Of a stretch of DNA of 64,000 nt, positions 1-27,268 are shown in pieces. Location of the stretch: assembly GCF_058153355.1 (NCBI RefSeq), contig NZ_CM177019.1, one strand, 5' to 3'. The translations under genes were made by a program, and so were the position numbers. Under the pieces are notes generated by a model that did no database searches, had not been told where the DNA came from, and saw only the letters and a list, made by a program, of their open reading frames with translations. Positions within the stretch are counted from its first letter, which is position 1. Each line of letters opens with the position of its first letter.

Positions 1-84
1 TGTTTACTCCTGATTAGCTATATGTATTTGGCGATGACTGAAATGCCATCGCAGCAAAACGCGTCCATTGAATATAGCCAATAT

Positions 85-1041
85 TTAAACCACCCGATCC
101 AGCCCCAACATGCCGCGAGCCTGAATGAAACAGAGCAGCAACGTTCCCCATAAGGCCATCGTCAGGTAGGGGCTTATCCCGAGAATATTGAAGCCGCTTT
201 CAATAATTTGCAGAAGAAACAGCGCCAGCACCATACCAATTATCCGCCCGCTGCCGCCGTCCGGATTAACCCCGCCAAGTACTGCCGCGAGGATTGACAC
301 CAGCAAGTACGATTCGCCATAAGAGGCCTTAGCCGAGTTGAGTTTCGACATCATCAAAAATGCCGCTACCGCACAAAGCAAGGCGGAAATGACATAAACC
401 CAAATCAGCACCCGACGAGTGTTAATGCCGGAGTAAAGTGTTGCTCGTTCGTTAGAACCAATCAGATAAATGGCTTTACCGAGCGGCGTTTTCTCCAGCA
501 ATACCCACAGTCCCAGTGCCACTGCGGCAAACAACCACATCGGTAGCGGAATACCGAACCATTGCGCATGATTCAACCACAGCACCCATGAGGGATAATT
601 GGCAATGGCGCTACCGCCTGTCACCAGAATATTTACCCCCTTGAGCAACGTCATCATCCCAAGCGTTGCAAGAATTGGCGACACTCGAATACCAGCAATC
701 AATACGCCGTTACATAAACCGATTATCACCGCCGCGCCAGCGCCCGCCAGCAGCGTAGCGACAACCGTAGCAATACCCGGTGGATACTGAGTCGCCACCC
801 ACGCCATCACCAGTGAACAGGCGTTAGCAGTGGCAATAATTGACAAGTTAATGCCACCGCAAAGCATGGTCACCGCCATAGCCAACGCCAGAATGCCCAG
901 CACGGGCATTTGCGAAGCGACGGACTGGAAATTACTTATCGACCAGAAAATCTCCGGCATAGTAATGCTGAAGGCGGCAACAGTTAGCACCAGCAGGCCG
1001 ATCAAGTAAAACTCAACGTTATTACGCCACGATTTTTTCAT
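85..1041 (-). CDS. Sugar ABC transporter permease (CUT2 ribose/AI-2 type, LsrD/YjfF-like)
   Basis: ORF 85..1071 is hydrophobic and multi-spanning. Likely start is the ATG at 1039-1041 (MKKSWRNN...), overlapping the upstream gene's TGA as ATGA (translational coupling). Fourth gene of a binding-protein/ATPase/permease/permease operon. Confidence 0.8.
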   Translation of the reverse strand: MKKSWRNNVEFYLIGLLVLTVAAFSITMPEIFWSISNFQSVASQMPVLGILALAMAVTMLCGGINLSIIATANACSLVMAWVATQYPPGIATVVATLLAGAGAAVIIGLCNGVLIAGIRVSPILATLGMMTLLKGVNILVTGGSAIANYPSWVLWLNHAQWFGIPLPMWLFAAVALGLWVLLEKTPLGKAIYLIGSNERATLYSGINTRRVLIWVYVISALLCAVAAFLMMSKLNSAKASYGESYLLVSILAAVLGGVNPDGGSGRIIGMVLALFLLQIIESGFNILGISPYLTMALWGTLLLCFIQARGMLGLDRVV

Positions 1042-2009
1042 AGCAGACTCCGGTTCTGATGCTGACTCCACGCCGTGGCGCTAATGCTGGCAACGATGAT
1101 GATGCCTGTGATCAATGTTTGCCAGTAAGACGAGACTCCCAATAAATTTAGCCCGTTTTGCATCACAGCCAACAACACCACGCCGAGCAAAGTACCGGTT
1201 AACGTGCCGCGCCCGCCGAGCAAACTAGTGCCGCCAAGCACCACCGCAGCCAGTACTGTCAGCTCATAACCCAGAAGAGAATCGGGGGCGACAGTCATCA
1301 CCGTCCACGACTGCACTACCCCCGCAGCACCAGACATCAATCCCATATAGCCGTAAACGAAAAGTTGCAGTTTCAGCACGCTAAAGCCGATGCGACTGGC
1401 TGATTCACGGTTCCCGCCAAGGGCATAAATTTTGCGCCCTACACTGGTGAAATTCATGATAAACGCTGTCAGCAGCACCACCGTAATCATGGCGATCAGC
1501 GGCAGACCAAGGCCATAGTCATAGCCGTCAACATCGGTGTACTTGAACAACATTACCCCCTGCTCAAACCACGGCGGAAAGTCGTACAGCCACACACCTT
1601 TACTCAACCATAACAGCAGGCCATAGAAAATATTCAGCGTCGAAATGGTGATGATGATAGAAGGCACCCGTAGGCGATTAACCAGTAAGGCGTTTATTAA
1701 GCCAAGTAAAATGCCGATGCCGCCCGCCAGGGCAAACGCGACAGCAAAGTTGCCACCCATTTTTTGCAGCAACAGCACCATGCCGTATTGCGCAATGATG
1801 GTCATTGCTGGAAACGAAATATCAATTCCACCGGAAATTAACACCACAAACAAACCACAGGCGAGAATAGTCAACATGGCATAGTTATTGGCGAGATCGT
1901 ACAAATTACCGAATGTCAGAAACTCGTCGCTGCGCCAGGCAAGGCCAACAAACAGCACTATAATCAGTAATGCCAGCCAGAATTCATGGCGTTTTTTCAG
2001 TTCAGCCAT
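1038..2009 (-). CDS. Sugar ABC transporter permease (CUT2 type, LsrC/RbsC-like)
   Basis: 323-aa hydrophobic ORF, 8-bp overlap with the upstream ATPase gene; typical RbsC-family composition. Confidence 0.8.
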   Translation of the reverse strand: MAELKKRHEFWLALLIIVLFVGLAWRSDEFLTFGNLYDLANNYAMLTILACGLFVVLISGGIDISFPAMTIIAQYGMVLLLQKMGGNFAVAFALAGGIGILLGLINALLVNRLRVPSIIITISTLNIFYGLLLWLSKGVWLYDFPPWFEQGVMLFKYTDVDGYDYGLGLPLIAMITVVLLTAFIMNFTSVGRKIYALGGNRESASRIGFSVLKLQLFVYGYMGLMSGAAGVVQSWTVMTVAPDSLLGYELTVLAAVVLGGTSLLGGRGTLTGTLLGVVLLAVMQNGLNLLGVSSYWQTLITGIIIVASISATAWSQHQNRSLL

Positions 2010-3501
2010 TTACCACCTCCGCAATCCTGGCCTGAGAACTGCTGTCAGGCAGGAAGCTATGGGTGATCTGACCTTTTTGCATTACCAAAATCCGGTGGCT
2101 TTGATACCACGCTTCTTCAATTTCATCGCAGATCATCAATACCGCAATGCCATGAGCCGCCAGATCGCTGATAATGCCGTATATTCCTGCTTTGTTGGCG
2201 ATATCAACACCGACAGTCGGGCTATCGAGAATCAACAGTCGTGGCCCAATCGCCAGCCATTTGGCGATCGATACTCGCTGCGCGTTACCCCCGGAAAGCG
2301 TATTCACCGGGAGATGTGGGTCAGAGACTTTGATGGTCAATGCCTTAATTAGCCTGTCCACCAGGTCACGCACTTTAGCTTCACTCAGAAAGCCGAAGCG
2401 ATCTTTTACCTTGTGAAAAACAGTGCTAATGATGTTGTCTTCAATAGATTGCGCCATCACCAAACCGCGCGACATGCGATCTTCCGAAACATAACCAATA
2501 CCGTGGCGGATGGCGTCCTGGTTACTATGCAGTGTAACCGGCTGACCGTTGATGAGGATCTCACCAGCATCCGGTCGGGTCATACCAAACAGACTCAGAC
2601 ATAATTCCGTGCGCCCCGCACCAAGCAGGCCAACAATCGACACCACTTCGCCCGCTTCCACCCGCAAGTTAATATTTTGATATTCCCCATGACGACTTAA
2701 ATTACGCACCTCCAGCACTGGGTTGCTGGATTTTCCCTGCCACAACTCTCGCACCTGATATTCAAACTCCTGGCCGGTCATCAGGAAACCGAGTTGTTTT
2801 GTGGTCATCTCTGCAGCCGGAAAGGTCCCGACCAGCTCACCATCTTTCAACACTGAAATACGGTCGGAAACTTCCATCACCTCTTCCAGACGATGACTGA
2901 CGAAGACCACGCAGATCCCGCGTTCCCGCAATTGATGCACCACCTGTAATAACCCTTGCACTTCCTGATGGGTCAGCGAAGCGGTTGGTTCATCCATCAC
3001 GATCAACCGTGCGTCCTGCGCCAGTGCACGGCAAATTGCCACCAGCTGACAGCGGGCAATTGAAAGCTCAGAAACGAGCGTATCCAGTGGCAATGTGACG
3101 TTAATACTGGTCATTGCCGCCTGCGCCACCTCACGCAGACGACGTCGGTTAACAAACAGACCGTGGTGATAGTGATTCACGGCGATATTCTCCCAGACAC
3201 TCAGGTTAGGAAATAAAGAGAGGTCCTGATAAATCACCTGAATCCCCTGCGCCACCGAAGCGGCGGGTGTCAGCTTTGACCAGTTTTTCCCACCAAGCGT
3301 AATTTCCGCCCCCTCATCCGGGCGATAAACACCGGACATAATTTTAATCAACGTCGATTTACCACAGCCGTTTTGCCCGGCAAGGCAGTGCACCTCACCC
3401 GACATAAAGTCGAGAGAAACATCGCGCAGCGCTCGCGTGGCATGAAACGTTTTGTTGATATGACGAAGGGAAAGGAAGGTTTCCATAGCATCCCCTGGCA
3501 A
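2002..3501 (-). CDS. Sugar ABC transporter ATP-binding protein with two nucleotide-binding domains (RbsA/LsrA-like)
   Basis: 499 aa with two Walker A motifs (GQNGCGKST and GLLGAGRTE) and LSGG signature. An alternative start at METFLSL (3486) is possible. Confidence 0.85.
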   Translation of the reverse strand: MPGDAMETFLSLRHINKTFHATRALRDVSLDFMSGEVHCLAGQNGCGKSTLIKIMSGVYRPDEGAEITLGGKNWSKLTPAASVAQGIQVIYQDLSLFPNLSVWENIAVNHYHHGLFVNRRRLREVAQAAMTSINVTLPLDTLVSELSIARCQLVAICRALAQDARLIVMDEPTASLTHQEVQGLLQVVHQLRERGICVVFVSHRLEEVMEVSDRISVLKDGELVGTFPAAEMTTKQLGFLMTGQEFEYQVRELWQGKSSNPVLEVRNLSRHGEYQNINLRVEAGEVVSIVGLLGAGRTELCLSLFGMTRPDAGEILINGQPVTLHSNQDAIRHGIGYVSEDRMSRGLVMAQSIEDNIISTVFHKVKDRFGFLSEAKVRDLVDRLIKALTIKVSDPHLPVNTLSGGNAQRVSIAKWLAIGPRLLILDSPTVGVDIANKAGIYGIISDLAAHGIAVLMICDEIEEAWYQSHRILVMQKGQITHSFLPDSSSQARIAEVVNG

Positions 3502-3534
3502 TAAGAATCGGGGCTTTCGCCCCGAAGAAATGGA

Positions 3535-4521
3535 TTAATAAAGTGAGTCAATATTGTCTTTGTTGACCAGTAATACCTTATGGAAACGGATAATTCGCTT
3601 ATCCATATCTACGTCGGCCTTACCGAGATTCTCCATTTCTAATCCAGGTTTGATCTCTTCACCCTTCAGCAACGTGCTGGCGACGGCCGCGAGTGCGTAA
3701 CCTGCAGAGGCCGGATCGTAAGTAATCCCTTCGGTGATATCACCACTTTTAATCAGTGATGCCGCCTGTGAAGGGATCATCATGCCATAGACTGCGACTT
3801 TATTTTTCGCCCGTTTCTCTTTCACCGCACGTCCCGCGCCAATCGGACCGTTTGAACCAAAGGAGACAACCGCTTTCAAGTCAGGATAGGTTTTCATCAG
3901 GTCCAGTGTGGTACGACGTGAGTCATCCACACTCTCGGCAACCGGCATGCGGCGGGTAACTTCATGCATATCCGGGTAATGCTCTTTCTGGTATTTCACC
4001 AGCAAGTCAGCCCATAAGTTATGCTGCGGCACGGTCAAACTACCCACGTAAATCACATAGCCGCCCTTGCCACCCATGCGTTTCGCCATATGTTCAACAT
4101 ATTCAGCGGCAAATTTTTCGTTATCAATGATTTCGATATCCCAGTTAGCACTTGGCTGACCGGGGGATTCGTTGGTCAGAACCACAATTCCGGCATCTCG
4201 CGCTTTTTTGAATACCGGTTCCAGCACGTTGGCATCGTTTGGTACAATTGTAATTGCATTAACCTTACGGGCGATTAAATCCTCAATGATTTTAACCTGT
4301 TGCGGAGCATCAGTACTTGAAGGCCCCACCGGTGACGCATTAACACCAAAGGCTTTACCCGCCTCGACCACACCTTCGCCCATGCGATTAAACCACGGCA
4401 TACCATCGACTTTCGAGATATTCACCACGACTTTTTCCGCTGCCTGGAGCGGCGCAGAAATTAGCGCAGCGCCTAATAACAGCGAAGACACCATATTGAT
4501 AACAAAACGTTTATTCATCAT
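3535..4521 (-). CDS. Periplasmic sugar-binding protein (LsrB/RbsB-like, PBP type I)
   Basis: 328 aa with N-terminal signal peptide (LLLGAALISAPLQAAEK). Resembles LsrB in my recollection, including the C-terminal NKDNID motif. First gene of the operon on the minus strand. Confidence 0.85.
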   Translation of the reverse strand: MMNKRFVINMVSSLLLGAALISAPLQAAEKVVVNISKVDGMPWFNRMGEGVVEAGKAFGVNASPVGPSSTDAPQQVKIIEDLIARKVNAITIVPNDANVLEPVFKKARDAGIVVLTNESPGQPSANWDIEIIDNEKFAAEYVEHMAKRMGGKGGYVIYVGSLTVPQHNLWADLLVKYQKEHYPDMHEVTRRMPVAESVDDSRRTTLDLMKTYPDLKAVVSFGSNGPIGAGRAVKEKRAKNKVAVYGMMIPSQAASLIKSGDITEGITYDPASAGYALAAVASTLLKGEEIKPGLEMENLGKADVDMDKRIIRFHKVLLVNKDNIDSLY

Positions 4522-4772
4522 TTCAGCCTCATTGCAGGGTAGTCAGGAAGTGTTCGCCCAAATTAGCGCGCTGGAGAGAATAAGAATTTTTGAATATTTT
4601 TATGCAGAATAAACAGCCCTATTTCAGGCAGCTATTAAAAATTTGGTTATAAATATGGACAAAACGGGCAGTAACAATAAGTGATGACAATCATCACGTA
4701 AAAAATAGCAAAATAAACAAAATTAGCGATACTTTATGTTTGTGAGCTTATTTCGCGTAGAAAAATAGTTAT

Positions 4773-4898
4773 CTACACAATGTCAATAAGGGCATATTCT
4801 TCAAAGATAACGTCCATTTCGGGTGAATAGCATCCTTCTGCCTGGAAAAAACGACGGTGTTCATTGCGCCAATATTCAAGACTGAGGTCACCTTCACC
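4773..4898 (-). pseudogene. 3' remnant of an ASCH-like small gene split by the IS66-family insertion
   Basis: Removing the IS and one copy of the 8-bp duplication joins 7368..7660 in frame to this segment (..KEGEG-DLSLEYWRNEHRRFFQAEGCYSPEMDVIFEEYALIDIV, stop at 4773-4775), giving about 130 aa. The ASCH assignment itself is tentative. Confidence 0.6.
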
Positions 4899-4973
4899 GT
4901 AAGCGTCTTATCAGGACCGTCTGGCAAATTCCCGATGCTTTGGACAAAGTATCCACCACTAAATTAATAGTGG

Positions 4974-5402
4974 GTGATAAAAATGTCAGATATACAAAAA
5001 AATGCCTCTCCGGGAAGGCCTAAAGGGTGCCTGAATTATCCTCCTGAATTCAAACAACGACTCATAGAAGCATCATTCCAGCCAGGTGTTTCAATTTCCA
5101 GACTGGCCCTGGACAATGGTATTAATGCCAATCTGTTGTTCAAATGGCGTCAGAAATGGCGGCAGGGGAAGATAAAATTGCCATCATCAGAATCAGGCAG
5201 AGAATCTCAGTTAATTCCTGTCACTATTGATGCCCAACTCCCAACTGCTCCGGCTAATGAGCCACTGACCGCAAGACCGTCAGTAACACCGGAAATACAC
5301 AGCATCTCCTGTGAGATTACGTTCAGAAACGGCACCCTTCGGTTGAACGGGGCAGTGAATGAAAATCTGCTGTCCTTGCTTATACAGGAGCTGAGACGGT
5401 GA
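4974..5402 (+). CDS. IS66-family accessory protein TnpA (orf1)
   Basis: 142 aa, helix-turn-helix-like N-terminus; first ORF of the IS66 triad, 4-bp overlap with orf2. Confidence 0.85.
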   Translation: MIKMSDIQKNASPGRPKGCLNYPPEFKQRLIEASFQPGVSISRLALDNGINANLLFKWRQKWRQGKIKLPSSESGRESQLIPVTIDAQLPTAPANEPLTARPSVTPEIHSISCEITFRNGTLRLNGAVNENLLSLLIQELRR

Positions 5403-5746
5403 TATCTCTCCCTGCAGGTTCGCGTATCTGGCTGGTTGCAGGTATCACCGATATGCGAAATGGCTTTAACGGCCTGGCCTCAAAAGTTCAGAACGTCCTG
5501 AAGGATGACCCGTTCTCCGGGCATCTGTTCATCTTCCGCGGACGCCGGGGTGACCAGATAAAAGTGTTGTGGGCTGACAGTGACGGACTGTGCCTCTTCA
5601 CCAGACGCCTGGAGCGGGGCCGCTTCGTCTGGCCGGTCACCCGTGACGGCAAGGTGCACCTTACTCCGGCCCAGTTATCCATGCTTCTTGAGGGCATCGA
5701 CTGGAAACACCCGAAACGAACGGAACGCGCTGGCATCCGCATATAA
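5399..5746 (+). CDS. IS66-family accessory protein TnpB (orf2)
   Basis: 115 aa, conserved IS66 Orf2 sequence (..LFIFRGRRGDQIKVLWADSDGLCLFTRRLERGRF..). Confidence 0.85.
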   Translation: MISLPAGSRIWLVAGITDMRNGFNGLASKVQNVLKDDPFSGHLFIFRGRRGDQIKVLWADSDGLCLFTRRLERGRFVWPVTRDGKVHLTPAQLSMLLEGIDWKHPKRTERAGIRI

Positions 5747-5765
5747 CCCGTTGTAAAGTGAGGAT

Positions 5766-7337
5766 ATGGACACCTCACTTGCTCATGAGAATGCCCGCCT
5801 GCGGGCACTGTTGCAGACGCAACAGGACACCATCCGCCAGATGGCGAAATACAACCGCCTGCTCTCACAGCGGGTGGCGGCTTATGCTTCCGAAATCAAC
5901 CGGCTGAAGGCGCTGGTTGCAAAACTGCAGCGCATGCAGTTCGGTAAAAGCTCAGAAAAACTTCGTGCAAAAACCGAACGGCAGATACAGGAAGCACAGG
6001 AGCGAATCAGCGCTCTTCAGGAAGAAATGGCGGAAACGCTGGGTGAGCAATATGACCCGGTACTGCCATCTCCCCTGCGCCAGTCTTCAGCCCGTAAACC
6101 GTTACCTGCCTCACTTCCCCGTGAAACCCGGGTCATCCGTCCGGAAGAGGAATGCTGCCCGGCCTGTGGTGGCGAACTCAGTTCTCTGGGATGTGATGTG
6201 TCAGAGCAACTGGAGCTTATCAGCAGCGCCTTTAAGGTTATCGAAACACAACGTCCGAAACTGGCCTGTTGCCGGTGCGACCATATCGTGCAGGCTCCGG
6301 TGCCTTCAAAACCCATTGCACGCAGTTATGCCGGAGCGGGGCTTCTGGCCCATGTTGTCGCTGGAAAATATGCAGACCATCTGCCGTTATACCGCCAGTC
6401 AGAAATATACCGTCGTCAGGGCGTGGAGCTGAGCCGTGCCACACTGGGGCGCTGGACAGGTGCTGTTGCTGAACTGCTGGAACCGCTGTATGACATCCTG
6501 CGCCAGTATGTGCTGATGCCCGGTAAAGTCCATGCCGATGATATCCCCGTTCCGGTCCAGGAGCCGGGCAGCGGTAAAACAAGGACTGCCCGGCTGTGGG
6601 TCTACGTTCGTGATGACCGTAACGCCGGTTCGGAAATGCCTCCGGCGGTCTGGTTCGCGTACAGCCCGGACCGGAAAGGTATCCATCCACAGAATCATCT
6701 GGCCGGTTACAGCGGAGTGCTTCAGGCCGATGCTTACGGTGGTTACCGGGCGTTGTACGAATCCGGCAGAATAACGGAAGCCGCATGTATGGCTCATGCC
6801 CGGAGAAAAATCCACGATGTGCATGCAAGAGTGCCCACCGACATCACCACGGAAGCCCTGCAGCGTATCGGTGAACTGTATGCCATCGAGGCAGAGGTCC
6901 GGGGCTGTTCAGCAGAACAGCGTCTGGCGGCAAGAAAAGCCAGAGCCGCGCCACTGATGCAGTCACTGTATGACTGGATACAGCAACAGATGAAAACACT
7001 GTCGCGTCACTCGGACACGGCAAAAGCGTTCGCATACCTGCTGAAACAGTGGGATGCACTGAACGTGTACTGCAGTAATGGCTGGGTGGAAATCGACAAC
7101 AACATCGCAGAGAACGCCTTACGGGGAGTGGCCGTAGGCCGGAAAAACTGGCTCTTCGCGGGTTCTGACAGCGGTGGTGAACATGCTGCGGTGTTGTACT
7201 CGCTGATCGGCACATGCCGTCTGAACAATGTGGAGCCAGAAAAGTGGCTGCGTTACGTCATTGAACATATCCAGGACTGGCCGGCAAACCGGGTACGCGA
7301 TCTGTTGCCCTGGAAAGTTGATCTGAGCTCTCAGTAA
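5766..7337 (+). CDS. IS66-family transposase TnpC (orf3)
   Basis: 523 aa with N-terminal coiled-coil, CxxC...CxxC zinc-finger-like segment and DDE-type core; ends 30 bp before the right IR. Confidence 0.9.
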
Positions 7338-7367
7338 ATATCAATACGGTTCTGGCGAGCCGCTTAC

Positions 7368-7660
7368 CCTTCACCTTCCTTACGGGCAATCTCTTCGGTG
7401 ACATCAGAAAAGCGCAGTAAATGCAGGCCAATAACTCTGATAACACACACAGGCTCACCACGGCTATTTTCTACAATCTTATACTCACCAATCATCGGAA
7501 ATGCTTTGTCTTCAATACATCCTGCCAGCGAACCACAGGAAGCAGTTTTAACACCAGTTGCAATCAACGTTGCGAGGTAATCGGCCAACGCTGCTGAATC
7601 GCCAAAACTACAAAAGGAAGCATGGGGATATTTTTGTGAGATTTTTTCTTTTATGGTCAT
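7368..7660 (-). pseudogene. 5' portion of the IS66-disrupted ASCH-like gene
   Basis: 98-aa ORF whose stop codon (7364-7366) is supplied by the IS terminal repeat; the reading frame continues into 4773..4898 once the IS is removed. Confidence 0.6.
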
Positions 7661-7957
7661 GAGAATATTTTCGCGATTACGGAAAAAAAATCACATCTTA
7701 ATTACTGTTGATAACCATCAGCAAGAGGATCATTGGTTTTTCTATGTTTAATCTTTTTTATCCGAAGCAGGTCACATTTATGGCTTGATAAATACCTTTG
7801 TTAAAACTCACTTTTGTGTATTTCTCTCAAATAATCCCCTGGAAATTATGCCGGGAGATTATAAAGTTCAGGAGCATTCATTAACAAACCATTCCCGCCC
7901 CACTCCCTGGGGCTTAAATCTCTTACTATTCACCGTTGCAGACGTTTCAAATTCGTA

Positions 7958-8168
7958 TCAACCTGCCACACTTCCCCACACCAGTTGCCCTTTATGGAAC
8001 GTTGCGGTACATGGCGAAATACGCGCCACCGCCTCGGCGGAACAGGAGGCGTCCACCAGCACAAAGCTGGCGTCATCCTGCGCTTTTGGCCAAACACGCT
8101 CGCCTTTTTCATTGAGCGGCAATACATCGCCAGTGGCTAAAAACAGCGAGCGGGATAAATTCTGTTCG
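7958..8168 (-). other. yahJ: Out-of-frame C-terminal coding segment of yahJ (displaced by a +1 frameshift)
   Basis: The +1 frame immediately downstream of the yahJ stop encodes 70 aa (NEQNLSRSLFLATGDVLPLNEKGERVWPKAQDDASFVLVDASCSAEAVARISPCTATFHKGQLVWGSVAG) resembling the C-terminal beta-sandwich of amidohydrolases. 390 + 70 = 460 aa matches my recollection of the K-12 YahJ length. Confidence 0.6.
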
Positions 8169-9341
8169 TTAGGGCGAATTATAGAGCTGCGCGTACAGAT
8201 TGGCTTTTTCCAGCATGTCGCCCAGGCCGTAAGGCGACCAGTGGTCGATAACGCTGTCAGTTCCGGTCATCACTTTTACGCCTTTGTCGTGCAACTGTTT
8301 AAGCGGCATATGCAGCGTGCCAATCGGCACCGTCGAGGCGATCGAGATTTGCTGCGCCGCCATCCGGTTCGCCAGTTCATCTACCTGTTGCTCATTGAGC
8401 GTTGCCAGCGCAAAGGCGTGGCTGATAGTCAGTTTGCCTTTTAATTGCGGCGTTTTTTCCACTGTTTCAACCATATAATTGATGGCCGCCACGCCTGCCG
8501 GAGTGGTTTCATGCAGATGAATATCGACGCCTTTGTCGTAGTCCAGCGCAATCTGGAACATGGTGTCGAGGGATTTTTCCATCGCGCCATCGACACTGGT
8601 TGGGTCCAGCCCGCCAACGTAATGCGCGCCTGCCTGCATTGCTTCACGCATCAAGGGTTCCGATTTCGACAGCAGCAAACCGTGCTGCGGGAAGGCGACG
8701 ATTTCACAATCGAAGCCCGCCTGACGTCGCGCCAGCACCGCCTGCAAATTTTGCAGATTTTTCAGGCCGGAAACCGGTTCGATATTGCAGTGACTGCGGG
8801 CAATGGTGGTGCCTTTCGACTGCAATAGTTCGATCAGTTTTTCCGCCCGCTCCTGCGTGTACGGTTGTAACTCCGGCAGCATTTTCTGCTCGAGTTTGAT
8901 CATGTCCTGGATGGTGGTGCCTGCCGGGCGATTGAGCGAGCGCCAAGGCCCGCCGTAAAAGGTTTTGTCGAGATGAATATGCATGTCGCGGGTGGTGGGC
9001 AGCATCAGCTTACCGCCAGCGTCATAGTGCGGCAGCGTGGCGTCCGGATGCTGCTTGTTCTCGCGCAGGGTAACAATTTTGCCGTTCTGAATCTCTACGG
9101 TCTGGCGCGCCGTGCGGGTCTGCACCGCCATGCCATTTTCATAGTCAAAACCGGTTTCCAGCAGCACGTTATCGAGATAGTAATGCGGGTCAGTGATTTT
9201 CATGGTGTTATTCGCGTCGCAGTGGGTGGTGCCAGAGACTGCCGCATGGGCGAGCGGCACAGAAGTACCAAACAGCGCGGCGGCGGTGACCATCTTACCG
9301 CTCTGGCTCAAAAACTCACGACGGCTATTGTTTTCTTTCAT
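8169..9341 (-). CDS. yahJ: Tat-exported metal-dependent amidohydrolase/deaminase YahJ, truncated to 390 aa by a 3' frameshift
   Basis: Twin-arginine signal (SRREFLSQSG...AHA) and amidohydrolase motifs (HIHLDK, DxHLHE, GTDS). Position next to yahI matches K-12 order. The ORF ends early; see the 7958..8168 segment. Confidence 0.8.
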   Translation of the reverse strand: MKENNSRREFLSQSGKMVTAAALFGTSVPLAHAAVSGTTHCDANNTMKITDPHYYLDNVLLETGFDYENGMAVQTRTARQTVEIQNGKIVTLRENKQHPDATLPHYDAGGKLMLPTTRDMHIHLDKTFYGGPWRSLNRPAGTTIQDMIKLEQKMLPELQPYTQERAEKLIELLQSKGTTIARSHCNIEPVSGLKNLQNLQAVLARRQAGFDCEIVAFPQHGLLLSKSEPLMREAMQAGAHYVGGLDPTSVDGAMEKSLDTMFQIALDYDKGVDIHLHETTPAGVAAINYMVETVEKTPQLKGKLTISHAFALATLNEQQVDELANRMAAQQISIASTVPIGTLHMPLKQLHDKGVKVMTGTDSVIDHWSPYGLGDMLEKANLYAQLYNSP

Positions 9342-9350
9342 CTTACGTCC

Positions 9351-10301
9351 TTACGTTTTAATAATATGGGTGCCCGTTTCACCGCGCAGCGCCGCGGGCA
9401 GGCATTCCGGCGTGGTGATAATCACTTCTTTGCCGCCCTGTTCCAGGAACATCAGGCTGGCGATGATTTTTGGCAACATGCTGCCAGGCGGGAAATGCCC
9501 TTCCTGCATATAGCGGGTCATGGTGGCAACATCCACCCGATCGAGCGCCTGCTGCTGCGGTTTGCCAAAATGAATACAGACTTTTTCGACACCAGTGGTG
9601 ATCACCAGAATGTCGGCGTGAATTTCGCGGGCCAGCAGCGCGGTGGAGAGATCTTTGTCGATAACCGCGTCCACGCTTTGGTAATCTCCCGCGTCAGTAC
9701 GCACCACCGGAATTCCGCCACCGCCCGCACCAATCACCACAAACCCTTGTTGGATCAGCGCTTTAATGGCAGGTGCTTCAACAATACGTTTCGGTTCCGG
9801 CGAGGCGACCACGCGGCGATAGCCGCGTCCGGCATCTTCAACAAAACGCCAGTCAGGATTTGCCTTTTGTAATTCGTCACGCTGGCTGTCACTAAAGAAT
9901 GCGCCGATGGGCTTGGTGGGATGAGCAAATCCCGGATCGTTTTTATCCACTTCCACCTGAGTCACCACGGTGACGGCTTTTTTCTCGCCGTGACGCGCCA
10001 GCCGGTTATTCAGCGCCTGCTGGATCAGATAGCCAATGCCGCCTTGCGTATCCGCCACACAGTTCGCCAGCGGCGTTAAGGGCAGCCCTTCGCGCTCGTG
10101 GGCAATCTCCGCACGGCGTAGATCCAGCCCAACCTGCGGCCCGTTGCCGTGGGTCAGCACAATGTCGTAATCGGAAGCCAGCATTTCCAGCACCGTATCG
10201 GCCACGGCTTTCACCGCCTCCGCCTGATGCTCAATCGACTGGCTGGCGTTATCTTTGATAATGCTGTTGCCACCAATGGCAACGACCACAAGTTCTTTCA
10301 T
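9351..10301 (-). CDS. yahI: Carbamate kinase-like protein YahI
   Basis: 316 aa, N-terminal (V/I)xxGGN amino-acid-kinase motif (VVVAIGGNSI), carbamate kinase family; synteny with the yah cluster. Confidence 0.85.
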   Translation of the reverse strand: MKELVVVAIGGNSIIKDNASQSIEHQAEAVKAVADTVLEMLASDYDIVLTHGNGPQVGLDLRRAEIAHEREGLPLTPLANCVADTQGGIGYLIQQALNNRLARHGEKKAVTVVTQVEVDKNDPGFAHPTKPIGAFFSDSQRDELQKANPDWRFVEDAGRGYRRVVASPEPKRIVEAPAIKALIQQGFVVIGAGGGGIPVVRTDAGDYQSVDAVIDKDLSTALLAREIHADILVITTGVEKVCIHFGKPQQQALDRVDVATMTRYMQEGHFPPGSMLPKIIASLMFLEQGGKEVIITTPECLPAALRGETGTHIIKT

Positions 10302-10351
10302 GTTGTTATGTCCGCTACAGAGGGTGATGGGGTTATGACCAACGCCAAATT

Positions 10352-11600
<1,249 letters not shown>

Positions 11601-11630
11601 CATGCCTGCAATCTGGGAAACCGGGGTAGA

Positions 11631-11900
<270 letters not shown>

Positions 11901-11920
11901 GACAACGCGCACTTTGCAGG

Positions 11921-13339
11921 TCAGACGCCGTAACGTTCGCACCAGCCAAGAATGGCTTTTTCGAAGCAGGCGAAGGGTGGATGCACAATGCCCGCGCCAA
12001 TCATGCCGACGCCCGCATCTTTATGGGCAATGGCGGTGTTGATCACCGGCAGAATGCCACTGCTACCCACGCGGGTGATGTCGATTGCCGTCGGCACACC
12101 CATAAAACCGAGCAGCGGAATGGTCACGTTGGGGTTTTCGCCGAGAGTGATTTCGCGCATCTGACGGGAGAAATCGATAGCCTCTTCCACCGTACCGCCC
12201 ACCAGCGCGACGATTGCAGGCGCGGTCGCCATAGCAAATCCACCAATGCCGTAGGTTTCGGTGATGGCGCTGTCGCCGATATCCAGCCCCGAATCTTCCG
12301 GCTTATAACCGGCAAACATCGGGCCGATGACCTGCTGCGCCGGGCCGGTAAACCACTGCCCCGGTAATCCGCTGACTCGCAGGCCGAACTCGACACCGTT
12401 ACGCGCCATGGTGGTCACCACGGTGCTGTATTCAATGCCGTGCGCCGCATCCATCGCTGCTTTACACATTGCCATCCACGTCGGGCCGGAGAAGTAATCG
12501 CTGCTGGCGACAAACTCAAACACTTCGCGCTGTTGCTCGACAGAATAGCCCGCCTGAATAATCCCCGGCGTCAGCGCCTGAATCAGCAGCGTCGTCCCGG
12601 CGTTATTGCGGTTATGGCATTCATCGCCCATATGCAGCGCCTGCGCCAGCATCAAACGCAGATCAATCTCACCGAGAATTTTCATCGCGTCACGCAGCAT
12701 TGGCCCCTGCACATCGCGCATCCAGTTCAGGCGGTCAATCACGCTCTGATCGTTGGCACCCATACGCAAAATCTTCGCCATCTGCTCGCTCATATTGGTG
12801 TAAGCGATGTTGCCGTAGGTTTTGTTTTTCACGATGTGCATAAACATCGAGGCAGAGGTAACACCCGCCATCGAACCCACGCAGTCATGCTCGTGGCAAG
12901 GCGAGAAGGTGATCTCCCCGGAAGCCGCCAGTTCGGCCGCCTCGTCGAGATCTTTCGCCAGCCCTTCGAACACCAGCGCCCCGGTGACCGCGCCTTTCAT
13001 AGCGCCGCACATTTTTTCCCTGGTCACTGGTGGCCCGGCGTGAAGAATGGTTTTCGCCGTCATGCCTGGCACCACGTTAATCGCCTGATCAAAACCAATC
13101 AGCACCGGATGCGACTGGATAATGCGTTCCAGCGCCTGCTGGTTAGCGGCGGCGATTTTGTCTGCCAGCGGCGAATCGGCAATGTTGTCCAGCGCCTGCA
13201 CCACCTGCATATTGCCCTGCCCCGGCGGCGTCCAGTCGAGTTGGGTCACTTCTACATGCTGCTTTTTCAGGTCATCGCTAAACATGGCGATGCCGACGTT
13301 AATAACGTTCAACGGTTGGCTAAACAGTGACGGACTCAT
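11921..13339 (-). CDS. yahG: DUF1116-family protein YahG
   Basis: Long ORF 11921..13360; likely start MSPSLFSQPLNV (472 aa, as I recall for K-12), overlapping the yahF stop by 1 nt. Synteny. Confidence 0.8.
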   Translation of the reverse strand: MSPSLFSQPLNVINVGIAMFSDDLKKQHVEVTQLDWTPPGQGNMQVVQALDNIADSPLADKIAAANQQALERIIQSHPVLIGFDQAINVVPGMTAKTILHAGPPVTREKMCGAMKGAVTGALVFEGLAKDLDEAAELAASGEITFSPCHEHDCVGSMAGVTSASMFMHIVKNKTYGNIAYTNMSEQMAKILRMGANDQSVIDRLNWMRDVQGPMLRDAMKILGEIDLRLMLAQALHMGDECHNRNNAGTTLLIQALTPGIIQAGYSVEQQREVFEFVASSDYFSGPTWMAMCKAAMDAAHGIEYSTVVTTMARNGVEFGLRVSGLPGQWFTGPAQQVIGPMFAGYKPEDSGLDIGDSAITETYGIGGFAMATAPAIVALVGGTVEEAIDFSRQMREITLGENPNVTIPLLGFMGVPTAIDITRVGSSGILPVINTAIAHKDAGVGMIGAGIVHPPFACFEKAILGWCERYGV

Positions 13340-14886
13340 CAGGCTTCCTCCCCTTTGCAAATAAATTCACGCGCCAGCAATCCGGTATTGGTGCTGCTGC
13401 TGGCCAGAATCACCCCGGCATCAAGCAGCATCTGGCTTTGTTGTGCTAACGATGACGTATCGAGATCGGTACCCAGCACATAGGCGAGAATGATCAACTC
13501 GCGGCCTTCGGCGGCAGCGATCGCTTTCGCTTCTTTGATCGCCTCGATGGTGGAACCGACCGGATCTTCATGCGATCCAAATCCGAGCACAAAATCCATC
13601 ACGATCACCGCCACTTCTGGATCGCGCGCCTCTTCGATCAAGCGACTGATGCGGTTGGTGGGGTCAATCATTGGATGCGGCTTGCCGTTGGTGAAGTCGT
13701 CATCACCAAAGTCGAGGAAGGTATGTTTGATGCTGCGGTTGATATCTTGCAGGCGGAATTCAGGATCGGGCTGAATGTTGCTGTAGACATCGCCGTGTTT
13801 TTCCATCACCGCGAACATGGTTTCGTCGCACAGTGTGCCGCCGCAGAACAGGCCACGAATGTATTTCTGCCGCGGTTGCAGACGCGCCCGCACATCCGCA
13901 ATCAACGGCTGGTTCAGGATATGCAGGTCGAGATGTTCTTGTTTCACGCCGGAGAGCATCACCGCTTTCAATGCCGCCTCTTTACTGCCGCGGGCAAACT
14001 GTAGCCCCTGCTCATCCACTGGCGTTTCGCCACGACCGAGGAAGCAGACTACCACCGGCTTGCGGCAGGCACGTGCGCGTTCCAGCACTTTGCGGGCCAC
14101 CGCAGGCGCAGGCGGTTTGGAGATAAGCACAATGATTTCAGTTTGCGGATCGTTTTCCAGCATCCCGATGGCGTCGAGCATCATCAGGCCGCCGATTTTC
14201 TCGCTCAGGTCGCGCCCGCCGGTACCAATCAGTTGCGAAACGCCGCCGCCAAATTCATGAATACGGACGCTCAGTTCCTGGCTACCGGTGCCGGATGCGC
14301 CAACAATACCGATGTTGCCGCGACGCACAGCGTTACCAAAGCAGAGCGCCGCGCCGTTGATAATCGCCGTGCCGCAGTCTGGCCCCATCATCAGCAGCCC
14401 TTTTTCGTGGGCCAGTTGCTTGAGCGCCAGTTCATCTTCAACCGAGACGTTATCGGAAAACAGCATCACGTTAAGATCGTTTTGCAGCGCCTGACGCGCT
14501 TCGCGAGCGGCAAACAGACCGTTGACCGAAATCACTGCCAGGTTACTTTCCGGGATATGCTTTTTGGCGCTGGCAATAGTGGCATAACGCGCCTCGTGCG
14601 AGCCGCTTTGCGCTTTGCTGTTGAACAGTTCTTCAATCTCCACCAGCAACTGCTCGTTGTCTGCGCCCGCTTTGCCGTTGATGACAATCATCAGGTCGCC
14701 GTTTTTCGCCTGCTCCAGCTCCGGCGTCAGCAGCCCTAAATTCTTCAGCACGCCTTTGTTCATTTCGGTCGCCATCGCCACAAATGCCTGCTCGACGCCG
14801 TCGAGTTTATTTGCACGCGTGGAGATAGACATCAGCGAGACAGAATCAAAATAGGTATTCGGTTTAATGACTATTTTAACTGACAT
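13339..14886 (-). CDS. yahF: FdrA-like protein YahF (CoA-binding / succinyl-CoA synthetase-like fold)
   Basis: 515 aa with glycine-rich nucleotide/CoA-binding-like segments (GIVGASGTG, GGVSQLIGTGG); matches K-12 YahF length and position. Confidence 0.8.
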   Translation of the reverse strand: MSVKIVIKPNTYFDSVSLMSISTRANKLDGVEQAFVAMATEMNKGVLKNLGLLTPELEQAKNGDLMIVINGKAGADNEQLLVEIEELFNSKAQSGSHEARYATIASAKKHIPESNLAVISVNGLFAAREARQALQNDLNVMLFSDNVSVEDELALKQLAHEKGLLMMGPDCGTAIINGAALCFGNAVRRGNIGIVGASGTGSQELSVRIHEFGGGVSQLIGTGGRDLSEKIGGLMMLDAIGMLENDPQTEIIVLISKPPAPAVARKVLERARACRKPVVVCFLGRGETPVDEQGLQFARGSKEAALKAVMLSGVKQEHLDLHILNQPLIADVRARLQPRQKYIRGLFCGGTLCDETMFAVMEKHGDVYSNIQPDPEFRLQDINRSIKHTFLDFGDDDFTNGKPHPMIDPTNRISRLIEEARDPEVAVIVMDFVLGFGSHEDPVGSTIEAIKEAKAIAAAEGRELIILAYVLGTDLDTSSLAQQSQMLLDAGVILASSSTNTGLLAREFICKGEEA

Positions 14887-15739
14887 AATTCCCTCCGTAG
14901 GTTTGGCTCAGCGCACAACCATCGGCCATGCCATACAGCATGTCGCAACCGGAACTGGAGCCAATATGTTTAATTTTTTCTATTGCCTGAGTTGCGTTCC
15001 CAGGTATGTCATAAATAATGTTATGAATAAAACGATGAATATTTTCCCGGCAGCGTTGTTGTAATGCGGCTTCCAGCGTTATGGCACTTAATAACGTGGT
15101 ATTATTTCTGCCGCGTTGCAGACCGAGATAAAATTCCTCTTTGTATTTTTCCGCCGGATGCCCGGGAATAAATAAAATAAGCGCCAGACCTGTTAAATAA
15201 TCGTCGGCTGATGGCGTAAGGCCAATCCCTAACCCCATCATATTAGCAATCGCCAAAGCGATATTTTCTTTATCGTTTACGGCCTGAATAACAGCCCGTC
15301 GTTTAATATGTAATTCTTTTTTTAATGCCTGATAGAACGGGTTATCGCCACAATAATTAAACAGGGTTTCATTTTCCCCCAGGTGTTGATGAATAATGTC
15401 GTGCCACTGTTGCCATGCGATAAGGTGAAAATTTTCAGCGGTCATTTGCAAAGCTGGGGACAGCCAACGCTGGCAATGACTCATCTCTATATGAAGATGT
15501 TGACCAACCGTAATACCTTGATCATCAAACTGAACCTTATCACCATGACGGAACAGACCATCAAAGTGAGTGAGTGCCAACCGACAACTGTTTGGCGCAT
15601 TGTCGTACTCTTCACAAAGCAGCGTTAGCAACTGCTGGCGGGCCGGAAGTGCGATATTTACCGCTCTGGCAAAGACCTGTTCAACCTGTCCTTGCCCCCG
15701 CTGCGCCAGAAAATCAGCATCCGCAGTTAGCGCCCACAC
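14876..15739 (-). CDS. yahE: Uncharacterised protein YahE
   Basis: 287 aa; 11-bp overlap with yahF; synteny with the K-12 yahDEFG operon. Confidence 0.75.
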   Translation of the reverse strand: MWALTADADFLAQRGQGQVEQVFARAVNIALPARQQLLTLLCEEYDNAPNSCRLALTHFDGLFRHGDKVQFDDQGITVGQHLHIEMSHCQRWLSPALQMTAENFHLIAWQQWHDIIHQHLGENETLFNYCGDNPFYQALKKELHIKRRAVIQAVNDKENIALAIANMMGLGIGLTPSADDYLTGLALILFIPGHPAEKYKEEFYLGLQRGRNNTTLLSAITLEAALQQRCRENIHRFIHNIIYDIPGNATQAIEKIKHIGSSSGCDMLYGMADGCALSQTYGGNYVS

Positions 15740-15778
15740 ACACCGTCTTTCTGGTGTGTTGATAGCAAGCCTCCCGGT

Positions 15779-16384
15779 TTATGCACCTGCGGCAATCAGT
15801 AACTGCGCAATCTCTTCAAAGCCTCGTTCCCGCGCCAGTTCCAGCGGCGTTTTACCATATTTATCCGTCATGTGCGGGCTGGCACCGTGTTCCAGCAATA
15901 ACTGGACAATCGCCTGCTGTTTTATCCCGCCATCGTTAAGCACAATCGCTTCCAGGAGTGGCGTCCAGCCAACATGGTTGGTCTGGTTAACGTTAATATC
16001 CGTATGCGTCAAAAGCTCTTTCACAATACTTAAATGACCTTTTTCACAGGCAGGCGTCAGGCCGACACCGCCGAAACGGGTTACACAATTAAGGTCTGGT
16101 TTAGCCGGTAAAATAATTCGTAGTAGCGTTAAATCACCGTTCAGGCAGCTAATTAAAAAAGGATTTTAACATATCTGATCTTGCTTATTAATATCCGCTC
16201 CGGCATCAATTAATGCCTGAACGCAAGCATATTGCTGATATAAACTTGCCAGCGTAATTGCCGTTTTCCCCTGACGATCGCTGGTATTAATATCGACACC
16301 CAGCGCAAGGCAGGTTTTTACTTTATCGATATCACCCTGTTGCGCAGCCAATAAATAGTCGGCAGGTAGATTTTTTATAGTCAT
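15779..16384 (-). pseudogene. yahD: Ankyrin-repeat protein gene yahD interrupted by an in-frame TAA (ochre) codon
   Basis: Two same-frame ORFs (16166..16384, 72 aa; 15779..16024, 81 aa) plus the 47 intervening sense codons total 201 codons, my recollection of K-12 YahD length. Single in-frame stop at 16166-16168 (..KQDQIC*NPFLISCLNGDLTLL..). Ankyrin motifs on both sides. Confidence 0.7.
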
Positions 16385-16642
16385 TCACATTCCCCTGGTT
16401 TTTGTGGCTGTTTTTCGATGAATTGAGAATAGCAACGATAATCTGATAAAAGAACCCGCTTAAATTTAATTCGCCGTATTTCGCCTTTTTGTTGAATGAT
16501 GTTCAACAATCTTTTCGCAGTGTGCGGTAGTGCAATATTTGTTTCTTTGACCCGATACCCTTTCACTCAATCAGGTTTTATTTCTCTATAGTCTGCACAT
16601 GTAAGAGTAGCTTTCGTCAATGTCTAACCAGAGGGGAACAAG

Positions 16643-17140
16643 ATGAACGGACTCACGGCAACGGGTGTCACCGTCGGTATTTGTGCAGGGCTTTGGCAGT
16701 TAGTGTCTTCACATGTTGGGCTTTCTCAGGGATGGGAATTATTAGGAACCATTGGCTTTGTCGCCTTTTGCAGTTTTTATGCCGCAGGCGGCGGTAAATC
16801 GGGGTTTATCAGAAGCCTGGCGGTTAATTATTCCGGGATGGTGTGGGCGTTTTTCGCCGCGCTGGCTGCCGGTTGGCTGGCCTCGGTGAGTGGGATTTCC
16901 GGCTTCTGGGCGAGCGTGATTATGACTGTACCCTTCTCGGCGGTGGTGGTCTGGCAAGGACGTTTCGGTTTACTGTCTTTTATTCCCGGAGGCTTTCTCG
17001 GCATGACGCTGTTTTTTGCCAGCGGGATGAACTGGACGGTGACATTACTGGGTTTTCTGGCGGGTAACTGCATGGGAATAATTTCAGAATATGGCGGACA
17101 AAAATTAAGCGAAGCGACGACTAAACGCGACGGGTATTAA
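16643..17140 (+). CDS. yahC: Inner-membrane protein YahC
   Basis: 165 aa, four predicted hydrophobic helices; divergent from yahD; synteny. Confidence 0.8.
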   Translation: MNGLTATGVTVGICAGLWQLVSSHVGLSQGWELLGTIGFVAFCSFYAAGGGKSGFIRSLAVNYSGMVWAFFAALAAGWLASVSGISGFWASVIMTVPFSAVVVWQGRFGLLSFIPGGFLGMTLFFASGMNWTVTLLGFLAGNCMGIISEYGGQKLSEATTKRDGY

Positions 17141-17231
17141 AAGTTATTCAAAAATGATTATCTATCTTTAACCGATACCTCTACAGTCATAGCTGGAGAA
17201 ATTCATAGTAGATAATGGCGGGAATGGTTTA

Positions 17232-18164
17232 ATGAACTCAATTTTTACCGAAGAGAATCTGTTGGCATTTACTACCGCTGCGCGTTTTAGCAGCTTCAGT
17301 AAAGCGGCAGACGAGTTGGGTTTAACCACTTCCGCCATTAGCTACACCATCAAGCGAATGGAAACGGGGCTGGATGTGGTGCTGTTCACCCGTAACACCC
17401 GCAGTATTGAGTTAACCGAGTCCGGGCGTTATTTTTTCCGCAAAGCTACCGACCTGCTGAATGATTTTCACGCCATCAAACGCAGCATCGATACTATTTC
17501 GCAGGGCATAGAAGCGCGTGTGCGTATTTGTATTAATCAGCTGCTTTATACGCCCAAACACACCGCACGCTTATTACAGGTACTGAAAAAGCAATTTCCA
17601 ACCTGCCAGATTACCGTCACCACCGAAGTGTATAATGGCGTCTGGGATGCGATTATTAATAATCAGGCGAATATCGCTATCGGCGCACCCGACACGCTGC
17701 TGGACGGCGGCGGCATTGATTACACGGAGATTGGCGCGATTCGCTGGGCTTTTGCTATCGCCCCGGATCACCCGTTAGCCTTCGTGCCGGAACCCATCGC
17801 CGAAAGCCAACTGCGTCTCTATCCTAATATCATGGTGGAAGACACCGCGCATACGATTAATAAAAAAGTGGGCTGGTTGCTGCATGGGCAGGAGTCGATT
17901 CTGGTGCCAGATTTCAACACCAAATGTCAGTGCCAGATTTTAGGCGAAGGAATTGGTTTTTTGCCGGATTACATGGTCCGTGAGGCGATGGCGCAATCCC
18001 TGCTGGTTACCCGACAAATCCATAATCCGCGCCAGGATTCACGCATGTTACTGGCGACCCAGCACTCTGCCACCGGTCAGGTGACGCAGTGGATTAAAAA
18101 ACAATTTTCGCCAAATGGCATATTAACGGGGATCTATCAGGATTTACTGCATCGGGAGAATTAA
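17232..18164 (+). CDS. yahB: LysR-family transcriptional regulator YahB
   Basis: 310 aa; N-terminal LysR HTH (FTTAARFSSFSKAADELGLTTSAISYTIKRME). Confidence 0.85.
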   Translation: MNSIFTEENLLAFTTAARFSSFSKAADELGLTTSAISYTIKRMETGLDVVLFTRNTRSIELTESGRYFFRKATDLLNDFHAIKRSIDTISQGIEARVRICINQLLYTPKHTARLLQVLKKQFPTCQITVTTEVYNGVWDAIINNQANIAIGAPDTLLDGGGIDYTEIGAIRWAFAIAPDHPLAFVPEPIAESQLRLYPNIMVEDTAHTINKKVGWLLHGQESILVPDFNTKCQCQILGEGIGFLPDYMVREAMAQSLLVTRQIHNPRQDSRMLLATQHSATGQVTQWIKKQFSPNGILTGIYQDLLHREN

Positions 18165-18205
18165 TCGCTGCCAACCTCCCGATGCGCTGTGAATAGCGGT
18201 TTACA

Positions 18206-19294
18206 TCAACCACCTGCTTTCATTACCCATTCAGAGATAAATTTATTACCCGGTACTGGCGGAGAGTACAAATAGCCCTGCAAAAAGTGAACGCCTTTGC
18301 CGATCATTAAATCCGCCTGCTCCTGGGTTTCTACCCCTTCCGCCACGATACTCAGACCAGGCTTACGCGCCAGTTCGACAATATTGTCCACAATATGACC
18401 GGAAATTTCGTCGACACTCGCCATTTGCACAAACGACTTGTCAATTTTAATAAAATCGACCGGAAACGCCTGCAAATAACGATAGGTCGCATAACCCGTA
18501 CCAAAGTCATCCAGCGCAAAGGTAATGTTGTGCTGATGAAGGCTGTCAAATATCGCTCTGGCTTCTGGCGTTACCGGAATGGGGTTGCGTTCCGTTAGCT
18601 CAAGAACCAGCTTGATTTTATCGTTACCTAATTTCTTGACCAGGTTCAGACACTCTTTTTCAAATCCTGCGGCCAAAAAACATCCTGCCGAGACGTTGAT
18701 GCCAATATGGAAATTATCCGGCAGCAAATGTTTTACTGGCATCAGAATATCCGCAGTCTGTTTCATCAGCTGGCGAGTCATTATGACAATAAGACCGGAT
18801 GACTCCGCCAGAGGAATAAACTGATCCGGTGGGATAATTCCCGTTTGCGGATGTTCCCAGCGGACAAGCACTTCACAGCCCGTCAGTACCCCTGTCTGCG
18901 CGCAGAAAACGGGCTGGATCCACGGTTTGAATTCGTGATTTTCCAACGCCAGACTGATGGCTTCAGGCGTGACGATATGGTGATAGTGATTATCATTAAT
19001 ATATTTGTGACTATTATTACCCGTGGCGGATATGATCTCCGGATTGTACTGAAAGAAAATATCCCGCCAGAAAGTAATATCGCTCTGAATCCCCAGTTTC
19101 TCAAAGAGCTGTTTCTTTTGATGTGAAATGGTCTTTGCACTGCGATTTCTGTACTGTGATATTTCTGTTACAGACATTCCCTGCATCAGCAGCTTGAGTA
19201 GCAGTCGTTCTTTCTCGGATACGCTACCAGGCAATGACAAATGAACCGTTGTACCGAACTCTTGCAGAAAAACACGAAAATCACATGAATTCAT
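18206..19294 (-). CDS. pdeL: c-di-GMP phosphodiesterase PdeL (YahA): LuxR-type HTH plus EAL domain
   Basis: N-terminal LuxR HTH (LLKLLMQGMSVTEISQYRNRSAKTISHQKKQLFEKLG), C-terminal EAL-domain motifs (ELTE, DDFGTGY). Start could be 19300 or 19294. Confidence 0.85.
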   Translation of the reverse strand: MNSCDFRVFLQEFGTTVHLSLPGSVSEKERLLLKLLMQGMSVTEISQYRNRSAKTISHQKKQLFEKLGIQSDITFWRDIFFQYNPEIISATGNNSHKYINDNHYHHIVTPEAISLALENHEFKPWIQPVFCAQTGVLTGCEVLVRWEHPQTGIIPPDQFIPLAESSGLIVIMTRQLMKQTADILMPVKHLLPDNFHIGINVSAGCFLAAGFEKECLNLVKKLGNDKIKLVLELTERNPIPVTPEARAIFDSLHQHNITFALDDFGTGYATYRYLQAFPVDFIKIDKSFVQMASVDEISGHIVDNIVELARKPGLSIVAEGVETQEQADLMIGKGVHFLQGYLYSPPVPGNKFISEWVMKAGG

Positions 19295-22203: not shown

Positions 22204-22266
22204 CCAGTATCCCCACTGTTATTGTTACCATTTAAAATCAAATTAGTAACAATTAAGACACATTTT

Positions 22267-22288
22267 ATATTGAACGTCCAATCAATAA
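22267..22288. promoter_or_regulatory. Putative BetI operator palindrome in the betT-betI divergent promoter region
   Basis: TATATTGAACGTCCAATCAATA: ends TATTGA...TCAATA are reverse complements; lies between the divergent betT and betI starts. Confidence 0.55.
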
Positions 22289-22331
22289 CGGCTTTAATAG
22301 ATTAACAACGCTGATGAATGGAGTGGCAAAA

Positions 22332-22919: not shown

Positions 22920-22932
22920 CCGAGGAGACGTG

Positions 22933-24405: not shown

Positions 24406-24418
24406 CCAGGAGGTTTAT

Positions 24419-27215: not shown

Positions 27216-27248
27216 AGGCACACTTATCTGGGTGTGCCTCTTTTTTTT
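27216..27248 (+). terminator. Intrinsic-terminator-like hairpin plus T-run about 20 bp upstream of the recombinase start codon
   Basis: aggcacac-ttatctgg-gtgtgcct followed by c and eight T (27241-27248); plus-strand orientation, ending 20 nt before the ATG at 27269. Confidence 0.5.
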
Positions 27249-27268
27249 ACAACTGTACACGGTGGCGT

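Follow-up and report, generated by a model that had tools for sequence, protein, structure and literature searches.

A complete IS66-family insertion sequence, apparently chimeric relative to ISCro1-type elements, interrupts an ASCH domain gene beside yahJ

Insertion sequences (IS) of the IS66 family carry three open reading frames, tnpA, tnpB and tnpC. The second, tnpB, lies in the -1 frame, and its start overlaps the TGA that ends tnpA; tnpC follows after some 20 bp. The inverted repeats, which are imperfect and about 20-25 bp long, start with GTAAGCG. These signature features are reportedly those laid out by Han et al. 2001 (J Bacteriol 183:4296), a work that is also said to treat IS679 of plasmid pB171, and by Gourbeyre, Siguier and Chandler 2010 (Res Microbiol 161:136). 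Target duplications of 8 bp are usual for the family (PMC3916326). The ASCH proteins studied so far hydrolyze N4-acetylcytidine, either free or in tRNA (PMC6972931; bioRxiv 10.64898/2026.02.27.708502), and in other ASCH proteins the N-terminal G-x-K-T region holds the catalytic lysine (PMC6972931).

The stretch of DNA analyzed here (64,000 nucleotides, referred to as the window) contains a complete IS66-family insertion sequence of 2469 bp (positions 4899..7367, plus strand), which is of the short-TnpA form and apparently chimeric relative to ISCro1-type elements. It is flanked by two copies of the 8-mer CCTTCACC at 4891..4898 and 7368..7375 (no strand assigned), both found by direct reading. 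According to the reading of the sequence and a script, the copies directly abut GTAAGCG (4899-4905) on the left and CGCTTAC (7361-7367) on the right. The terminal inverted repeats are 22 bp long and imperfect, with 17 of the 22 positions matching and the first seven identical; the left one (4899..4920, plus strand) is GTAAGCGTCTTATCAGGACCGT, and the right one (7346..7367, minus strand) reads GTAAGCGGCTCGCCAGAACCGT as its reverse complement.

An empty site was reconstructed by joining positions 4399-4898 to 7376-7875 (1 kb in total) and searched in 5426 complete E. coli genomes, a check that had been proposed in the initial annotation. The reconstruction aligned in one piece in 2209 of the 5426 genomes, and the feature under the join in those genomes is annotated as 'ASCH domain-containing protein'. 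E. coli 2020CK-00188 has the uninterrupted site, ...GAGGTCACCTTCACCTTCCTTACGG..., with one copy of CCTTCACC. Since the empty site of this strain holds a single 8-mer and the reconstruction is continuous in that many genomes, it is directly proven that the flanking 8-mers are a genuine target-site duplication. As CCTTCACC occurs four times on the plus strand of the window and once as the reverse complement, a chance repeat was also considered, in which the two ASCH pieces would be unrelated open reading frames. The two flanking copies, however, abut the IS termini exactly (the chance of two independent 8-mers matching at fixed positions is about 4^-8 = 1.5e-5), and the empty site combines one 8-mer with a continuous 136-codon reading frame encoding a full ASCH domain, which makes such a coincidence vanishingly improbable.

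Within the IS, three genes are found on the plus strand. The first, tnpA (4983..5402), encodes an accessory protein of 139 aa that has a helix-turn-helix domain and belongs to the short ISRel24 type (PF01527, E = 6.5e-11; NF047595, 88.9 bits with a cut-off of 74). The second, tnpB (5399..5746), encodes a 115-aa IS66 accessory protein (PF05717, E = 7e-40; NF033819, 127.8 bits with a cut-off of 50), and the third, tnpC (5766..7337), a 523-aa DDE transposase (PF13007, PF13005, PF03050 with E = 4.4e-104, and PF13817; NF033517, 479 bits with a cut-off of 180). The Pfam domains are HTH_Tnp_1 in TnpA, TnpB_IS66 in TnpB, and LZ_Tnp_IS66, zf-IS66, DDE_Tnp_IS66 and DDE_Tnp_IS66_C in TnpC, and the cut-offs of the NCBIfam equivalog models for the IS66 TnpA (ISRel24 type), TnpB and transposase were all exceeded. 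By direct reading, the GTG start of tnpB overlaps the TGA stop of tnpA as GTGA (5399-5402), and the spacer between tnpB and tnpC is 19 bp long. The element thus has what defines the family, namely a TnpC with zinc-finger and leucine-zipper regions, a TnpB, a TnpA with a helix-turn-helix, the ends and the 8-bp duplication. These matches for all three reading frames, together with the single 8-mer of the empty site, bear out the initial annotation of an IS66-family element with an 8-bp duplication and GTAAGCG...CGCTTAC ends. A search of the 64,000-nt window for further copies of the IS found none.

The interrupted gene lies on the minus strand. Its 5' part is a 98-codon open reading frame (7364..7660) that ends at a TAA (7366..7364) inside the IS terminus (G-TAA-GCG on the minus strand); because this stop codon belongs to the IS terminus, the 98-aa reading frame contains no IS-encoded residues. 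The orphaned 3' part (4773..4898, minus strand) consists of the last 38 codons and the stop, plus the duplicated 8 bp. When 95 codons (7660..7376) are joined to 41 codons and the stop (4898..4773), the fused reading frame encodes 136 aa, and 131 of these 136 residues are identical to WP_032183414.1 of strain 2020CK-00188, in which the intact gene is annotated with a length of 411 bp. From the joined reading frame and the annotated 411-bp gene, the two pieces are in frame, as had been claimed at the outset, but the dimensions given then (about 130 aa, with 32 codons beyond the insertion) have to be corrected to 136 aa and 38 lost codons. A 52-aa open reading frame running out from the left IS end (4769..4927, minus strand) was considered as a fusion to the 3' part of the ASCH gene and rejected, as it is in a different frame.

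That the split gene is ASCH-like had likewise been proposed, and it agrees with the intact homologue in thousands of genomes and with the domain content of the reconstruction: the 136-aa protein matches PF04266 (ASCH) over residues 22-133 with 80 bits (cut-off 21.2). The NCBIfam models gave no match to this protein. Among PDB entries, the reconstructed protein matched 1T62 (E = 1e-19) and 3S9X (E = 1.5e-17); a single ASCH domain is common to all three, and the motif EGEGDxSLxYW...H..FF (EGEGD-SL-YW-H-FF) is aligned across them. Regarding the YqfB-type N4-acetylcytidine amidohydrolases, they have the ASCH domain and a G-x-K motif near the N-terminus, as does the 136-aa protein, whereas YqfB comprises 103 aa. 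Compared with the YqfB octapeptide G-x-K-x-x-T-x-R, the motif found here (G-V-K-T-A-S-C-G) keeps the Lys and has Ser in place of Thr and Gly in place of Arg; the sixth motif position is thus Ser here, Thr in YqfB and Glu in TthASCH. A scan of species-representative genomes with the ASCH protein yielded only one Pseudomonas homologue and two remnants.

The 98-aa fragment keeps the region of the N-terminal G-x-K-T motif and the acidic EGEG stretch. The 38 lost residues sit within the single conserved domain and include D-x-S-L-x-Y-W-x-x-H-x-x-F-F, the stretch that is best conserved relative to 1T62 and 3S9X, and because of this loss the truncated product would be non-functional. For annotation, the 98-aa reading frame and the 3' fragment are best entered as a single IS-interrupted ASCH pseudogene.

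To see how widely this insertion is distributed, the left junction was used as a query; none of the complete E. coli genomes covered both of its sides, and the insertion is absent from them. An exact look-up of the 98-aa product yielded two short contigs, one of which is contig L006 of run SRR28786219 (Logan). Contig L006, on which the same 98-aa product is called, is 100% identical to window positions 7339-10373 and so extends 29 bp into the IS from its right end; contig L015 of the same run is 100% identical to 535-4927 and extends into the IS from the left, again by 29 bp. In GCA_043012465.1, a contig breaks off at 7370. As the contigs of SRR28786219 reach into both ends of the IS, both junctions are real at the level of a short-read assembly, and only a narrow lineage has the insertion. 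It is a recent insertion, confined to one lineage.

The gene order in IS-free genomes is yahK, two permeases, ATPase, binding protein, ASCH, yahJ and yahI, and window positions 1-4898 and 7368-10378 are colinear with these genomes. According to Pfam and the annotation, the transporter adjoining the insertion is a sugar-type (CUT2-like) ABC system with a periplasmic binding protein, an ATPase with two fused ABC domains and two BPD_transp_2 permeases; among the substrate-specific NCBIfam models, the best ones (RhaS and LsrB) remained far below their cut-offs. The initial annotation had called this operon strain-specific, a term that should be dropped for the neighboring ABC transporter, as at least 80% of window positions 1-4898 is present, with the same gene order, in 2212 of the 5426 complete E. 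coli genomes (about 41%). The ASCH gene precedes the ABC operon in the same orientation, and the 251 bp between them showed no consensus promoter in simple scans; near the junctions, a search for promoters and terminators yielded nothing beyond what shuffled sequences give. A polar effect of the insertion on the ABC operon is possible. The yahJ gene carries a 1-bp frameshift, and an IS621 insertion is found within 4 kb. Since the insertion into the ASCH gene adds to these two lesions, the observations suggest an ongoing decay of the yah region in this lineage.

In K-12, yahK directly follows yahJ, as stated in the initial annotation. The yahJ-yahK spacer of K-12 retains matches to window positions 1-156 and 4751-4820, and because these remnants persist, K-12 must have lost the ABC-ASCH block by deletion. 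The edges of the K-12 deletion are at 4750/4751, 4820/4821 and 7896/7897, none of them at the IS site.

These edges, and the colinearity of the flanks with IS-free genomes, also speak against the suggestion that the IS may mark a rearrangement boundary relative to K-12. Such a boundary could have arisen if the ABC block had been introduced beside yahJ and the IS lay at its border, or if a recombination tract ended at the IS, and the divergence of the window from the nearest genome, 2020CK-00188, has a step of the kind expected, from 0.1-0.5% (positions 1001-4000) to 3-4% (7376-10378), with 7389, a position 14 bp away from the junction, as the best two-segment breakpoint. To the left of the IS, the highest identity to a complete E. 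coli genome was 99.0%, and to its right 96.4%. The E. coli references, however, differ among themselves in the same manner (0.3-2.5% on the left versus 4-6% on the right), the best breakpoint shifts to 7661 and 7852 when two other references are used, and the divergence already amounts to 0.8-1.4% from about position 4001 onwards, to the left of the IS. With a gene order across the site that is identical in IS-free genomes, a boundary at the IS is very unlikely. As the step is seen among the reference genomes too and the breakpoint moves with the reference, it is best taken as a property of the locus and not of the IS. Outside the ABC block, no complete E. coli genome is more than 96.5% identical to the window.

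In the explanation preferred here, an intact 2469-bp IS66-family element transposed into codon 98/99 of a 136-codon ASCH gene situated between yahJ and the sugar-type ABC transporter operon. By analogy with what is known of the IS66 family, the DDE transposase TnpC, aided by TnpA and TnpB, would have performed the insertion; a staggered cut and its repair duplicated the 8-bp target CCTTCACC, and the ASCH reading frame now ends at a stop codon that the IS terminus provides. We place high confidence in this explanation as a whole, i.e., in a recent IS66-family transposition into the ASCH gene, in one lineage, of an ISCro1-related, module-swapped element, and none of the evidence contradicts the insertion itself. 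The event is an ordinary inactivation of an accessory gene by a mobile element, which is of a well-known kind. What sets it apart is that, compared with ISCro1-type elements, a module is swapped, and that this form appears to have transposed; the rarity of the form in complete E. coli genomes adds a little to this.

The ISCro1-type comparator was the PGAP-labelled 2704-bp copy of E. coli A34 (NZ_CP028741.1, 2168921-2171624), used as a stand-in for the ISfinder reference. Its length is presumably also that of IS679 from plasmid pB171. In a three-way alignment, IS positions 1-501 were 46% identical to the A34 copy, whereas positions 502-2469 were 97.2% identical, and the switch in identity is located exactly at the overlap of the tnpA stop with the tnpB start. 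The right 1968 bp, comprising tnpB, tnpC and the right end, are the ISCro1-like part. Regarding the proteins, the identity to the ISCro1-type copy was 36% for TnpA (139 versus 216 aa), 98.3% for TnpB and 98.7% for TnpC (516 of 523 residues). The element therefore appears to be a module-swapped relative of the ISCro1 type, in which tnpB, tnpC and the right end are alike and the left end and tnpA are different.

The element might instead simply be one more copy of an IS66 member already catalogued from E. coli (ISCro1, ISEc8 or IS682), as could be expected from the identity of its TnpC and TnpB to PGAP-labelled ISCro1-family proteins and from the 2483 E. coli records that match parts of the IS at 95-99%. 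The transposase does agree at the level of at least about 98% of amino acids that is used for identity with ISCro1 (TnpC being compared with the PGAP-labelled copy and not with the ISfinder reference), but a nucleotide identity of about 95% over the full length, with the same ends and the same length, is lacking, given the 46% of the left part and the 2469 versus 2704 bp. The search against complete E. coli genomes yielded 97% matches over positions 502-2469 only, to elements annotated as ISCro1 family, and found no complete E. coli genome matching beyond these positions. The first 522 bp of the IS (4899-5420) were matched, at 92-96%, by only a few E. coli records, and in the two that were inspected (2013C-3033 and an ETEC plasmid, there beside cof pilus genes) the left module is a truncated or decayed remnant. 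Together with the deviating TnpA, these results make an ordinary copy a rather doubtful reading, even though the 2469-bp element may already be named in ISfinder.

Two further occurrences bear on the mobility of the 2469-bp form. In GCA_047897835.1, a 99.8% identical copy of 2469 bp flanked by CACCGGAC is located beside a Peptidase_S6 autotransporter, and in E. albertii plasmids (pESA134_1 and relatives) a 95.9% identical copy of 2469 bp flanked by GAATAAGG is located inside a Tn3 transposase gene. Since the three sites carry three different 8-bp duplications, the comparison indicates that the 2469-bp hybrid form moves as a unit. We lean towards a naturally arisen hybrid that is able to transpose: the left end and tnpA of one IS66 lineage would have been joined, precisely where the tnpA stop overlaps the tnpB start, to the tnpB-tnpC-right end part of an ISCro1-type element. 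If this holds, the TnpA/left-end module of IS66 elements would be exchangeable, and an ISCro1-type TnpC would work with mismatched ends and with a heterologous TnpA that is 36% identical and 77 residues shorter, which would constrain the roles of TnpA and of the ends in the poorly understood IS66 mechanism. The clean swap at the tnpA/tnpB junction would be a small experiment of nature, informative about which parts of an IS66 element have to fit one another.

Compared with the IS66 family in general, the 2469-bp element has all the signature features and no differences, and is a canonical member. The copies in the E. albertii plasmids and in GCA_047897835.1 are identical to it in length and ends and have intact open reading frames and 8-bp duplications; their insertion sites differ. 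The ISCro1-type element of A34 shares with it tnpB, tnpC and the right inverted repeat (with one base different), the overlap of the tnpA stop with the tnpB start, and the length of the target duplication, which is GATTTAAG in A34. It differs in its left repeat, GTAACCGTCTCATTTAAACCGT as opposed to GTAAGCGTCTTATCAGGACCGT, in its 216-aa TnpA as opposed to one of the 139-aa ISRel24 type, and in its length, the element described here being 235 bp shorter, with the left 501 bp unrelated at the DNA level.

Three lesions lie within 4 kb of each other in the window: the insertion in the ASCH gene, a 1-bp insertion in yahJ and an IS621 insertion. The yahJ gene (about 7960..9341, minus strand) carries one extra T at window position 8179 relative to three E. 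coli references, which shifts the frame and leads to a stop after 390 of the 460 codons. The same extra-T sequence is present in a Logan short-read contig (L006, run SRR28786219). The third lesion, to the right of yahJ, is a 1.28-kb insertion at 10379-11656, which is absent from E. coli 2020CK-00188. It contains a plus-strand ORF (10571..11551) for a 326-aa protein, to which the genomes that match give the annotation IS110-like IS621 transposase. The insertion is immediately preceded by a REP-like unit, GCCTGATGCGCTACGCTTATCAGGCCT (10351-10378), which is repeated within 93-nt tandem units at 11657-11935.

Outside the ABC transporter block, three stretches of the region 7376-34000 were searched against 5426 complete E. 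coli genomes. The best identity to any of these genomes was 95.5-96.5% for 7376-10378, 8000-20000 and 22000-34000, and the majority of records matched at 90-95% identity in two of the three stretches (7376-10378 and 22000-34000). Either the chromosome is unusually diverse in this region, or the strain is a member of a divergent Escherichia lineage.

On the other side of the ASCH gene, the terminator scan picked up a small perfect hairpin with a poor tail, GTGATGATTGTCATCAC (4681-4697, minus strand), in the spacer preceding the binding-protein gene, approximately 75 bp beyond the stop codon of the ASCH gene; the hairpin may act as a weak terminator or as an operator.

Regarding the short-tnpA IS66-family element that splits the ASCH gene, a decayed copy is found on the ETEC plasmid p16F5M1D101 (NZ_AP019857.1, 17332-18720), where it is cut off by an IS3-family element and adjoins the cof genes (CFA/III type IVb pilus). 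About 12 further plasmids, of about 100 kb each, yielded sequence matches to the left module of the element (left end and TnpA) at similar coordinates.

In K-12 (NC_000913.3), the spacer between yahJ and yahK (342508-342883; L005 6594-6882) has kept two short pieces of the block that comprises the ABC transporter and ASCH genes; these remnants correspond to window positions 1-156 and 4751-4820 and include the final 16 codons of the ASCH gene. The retention of these block remnants in the K-12 spacer shows that K-12 is a deletion derivative, and that the other strains are not insertion derivatives.
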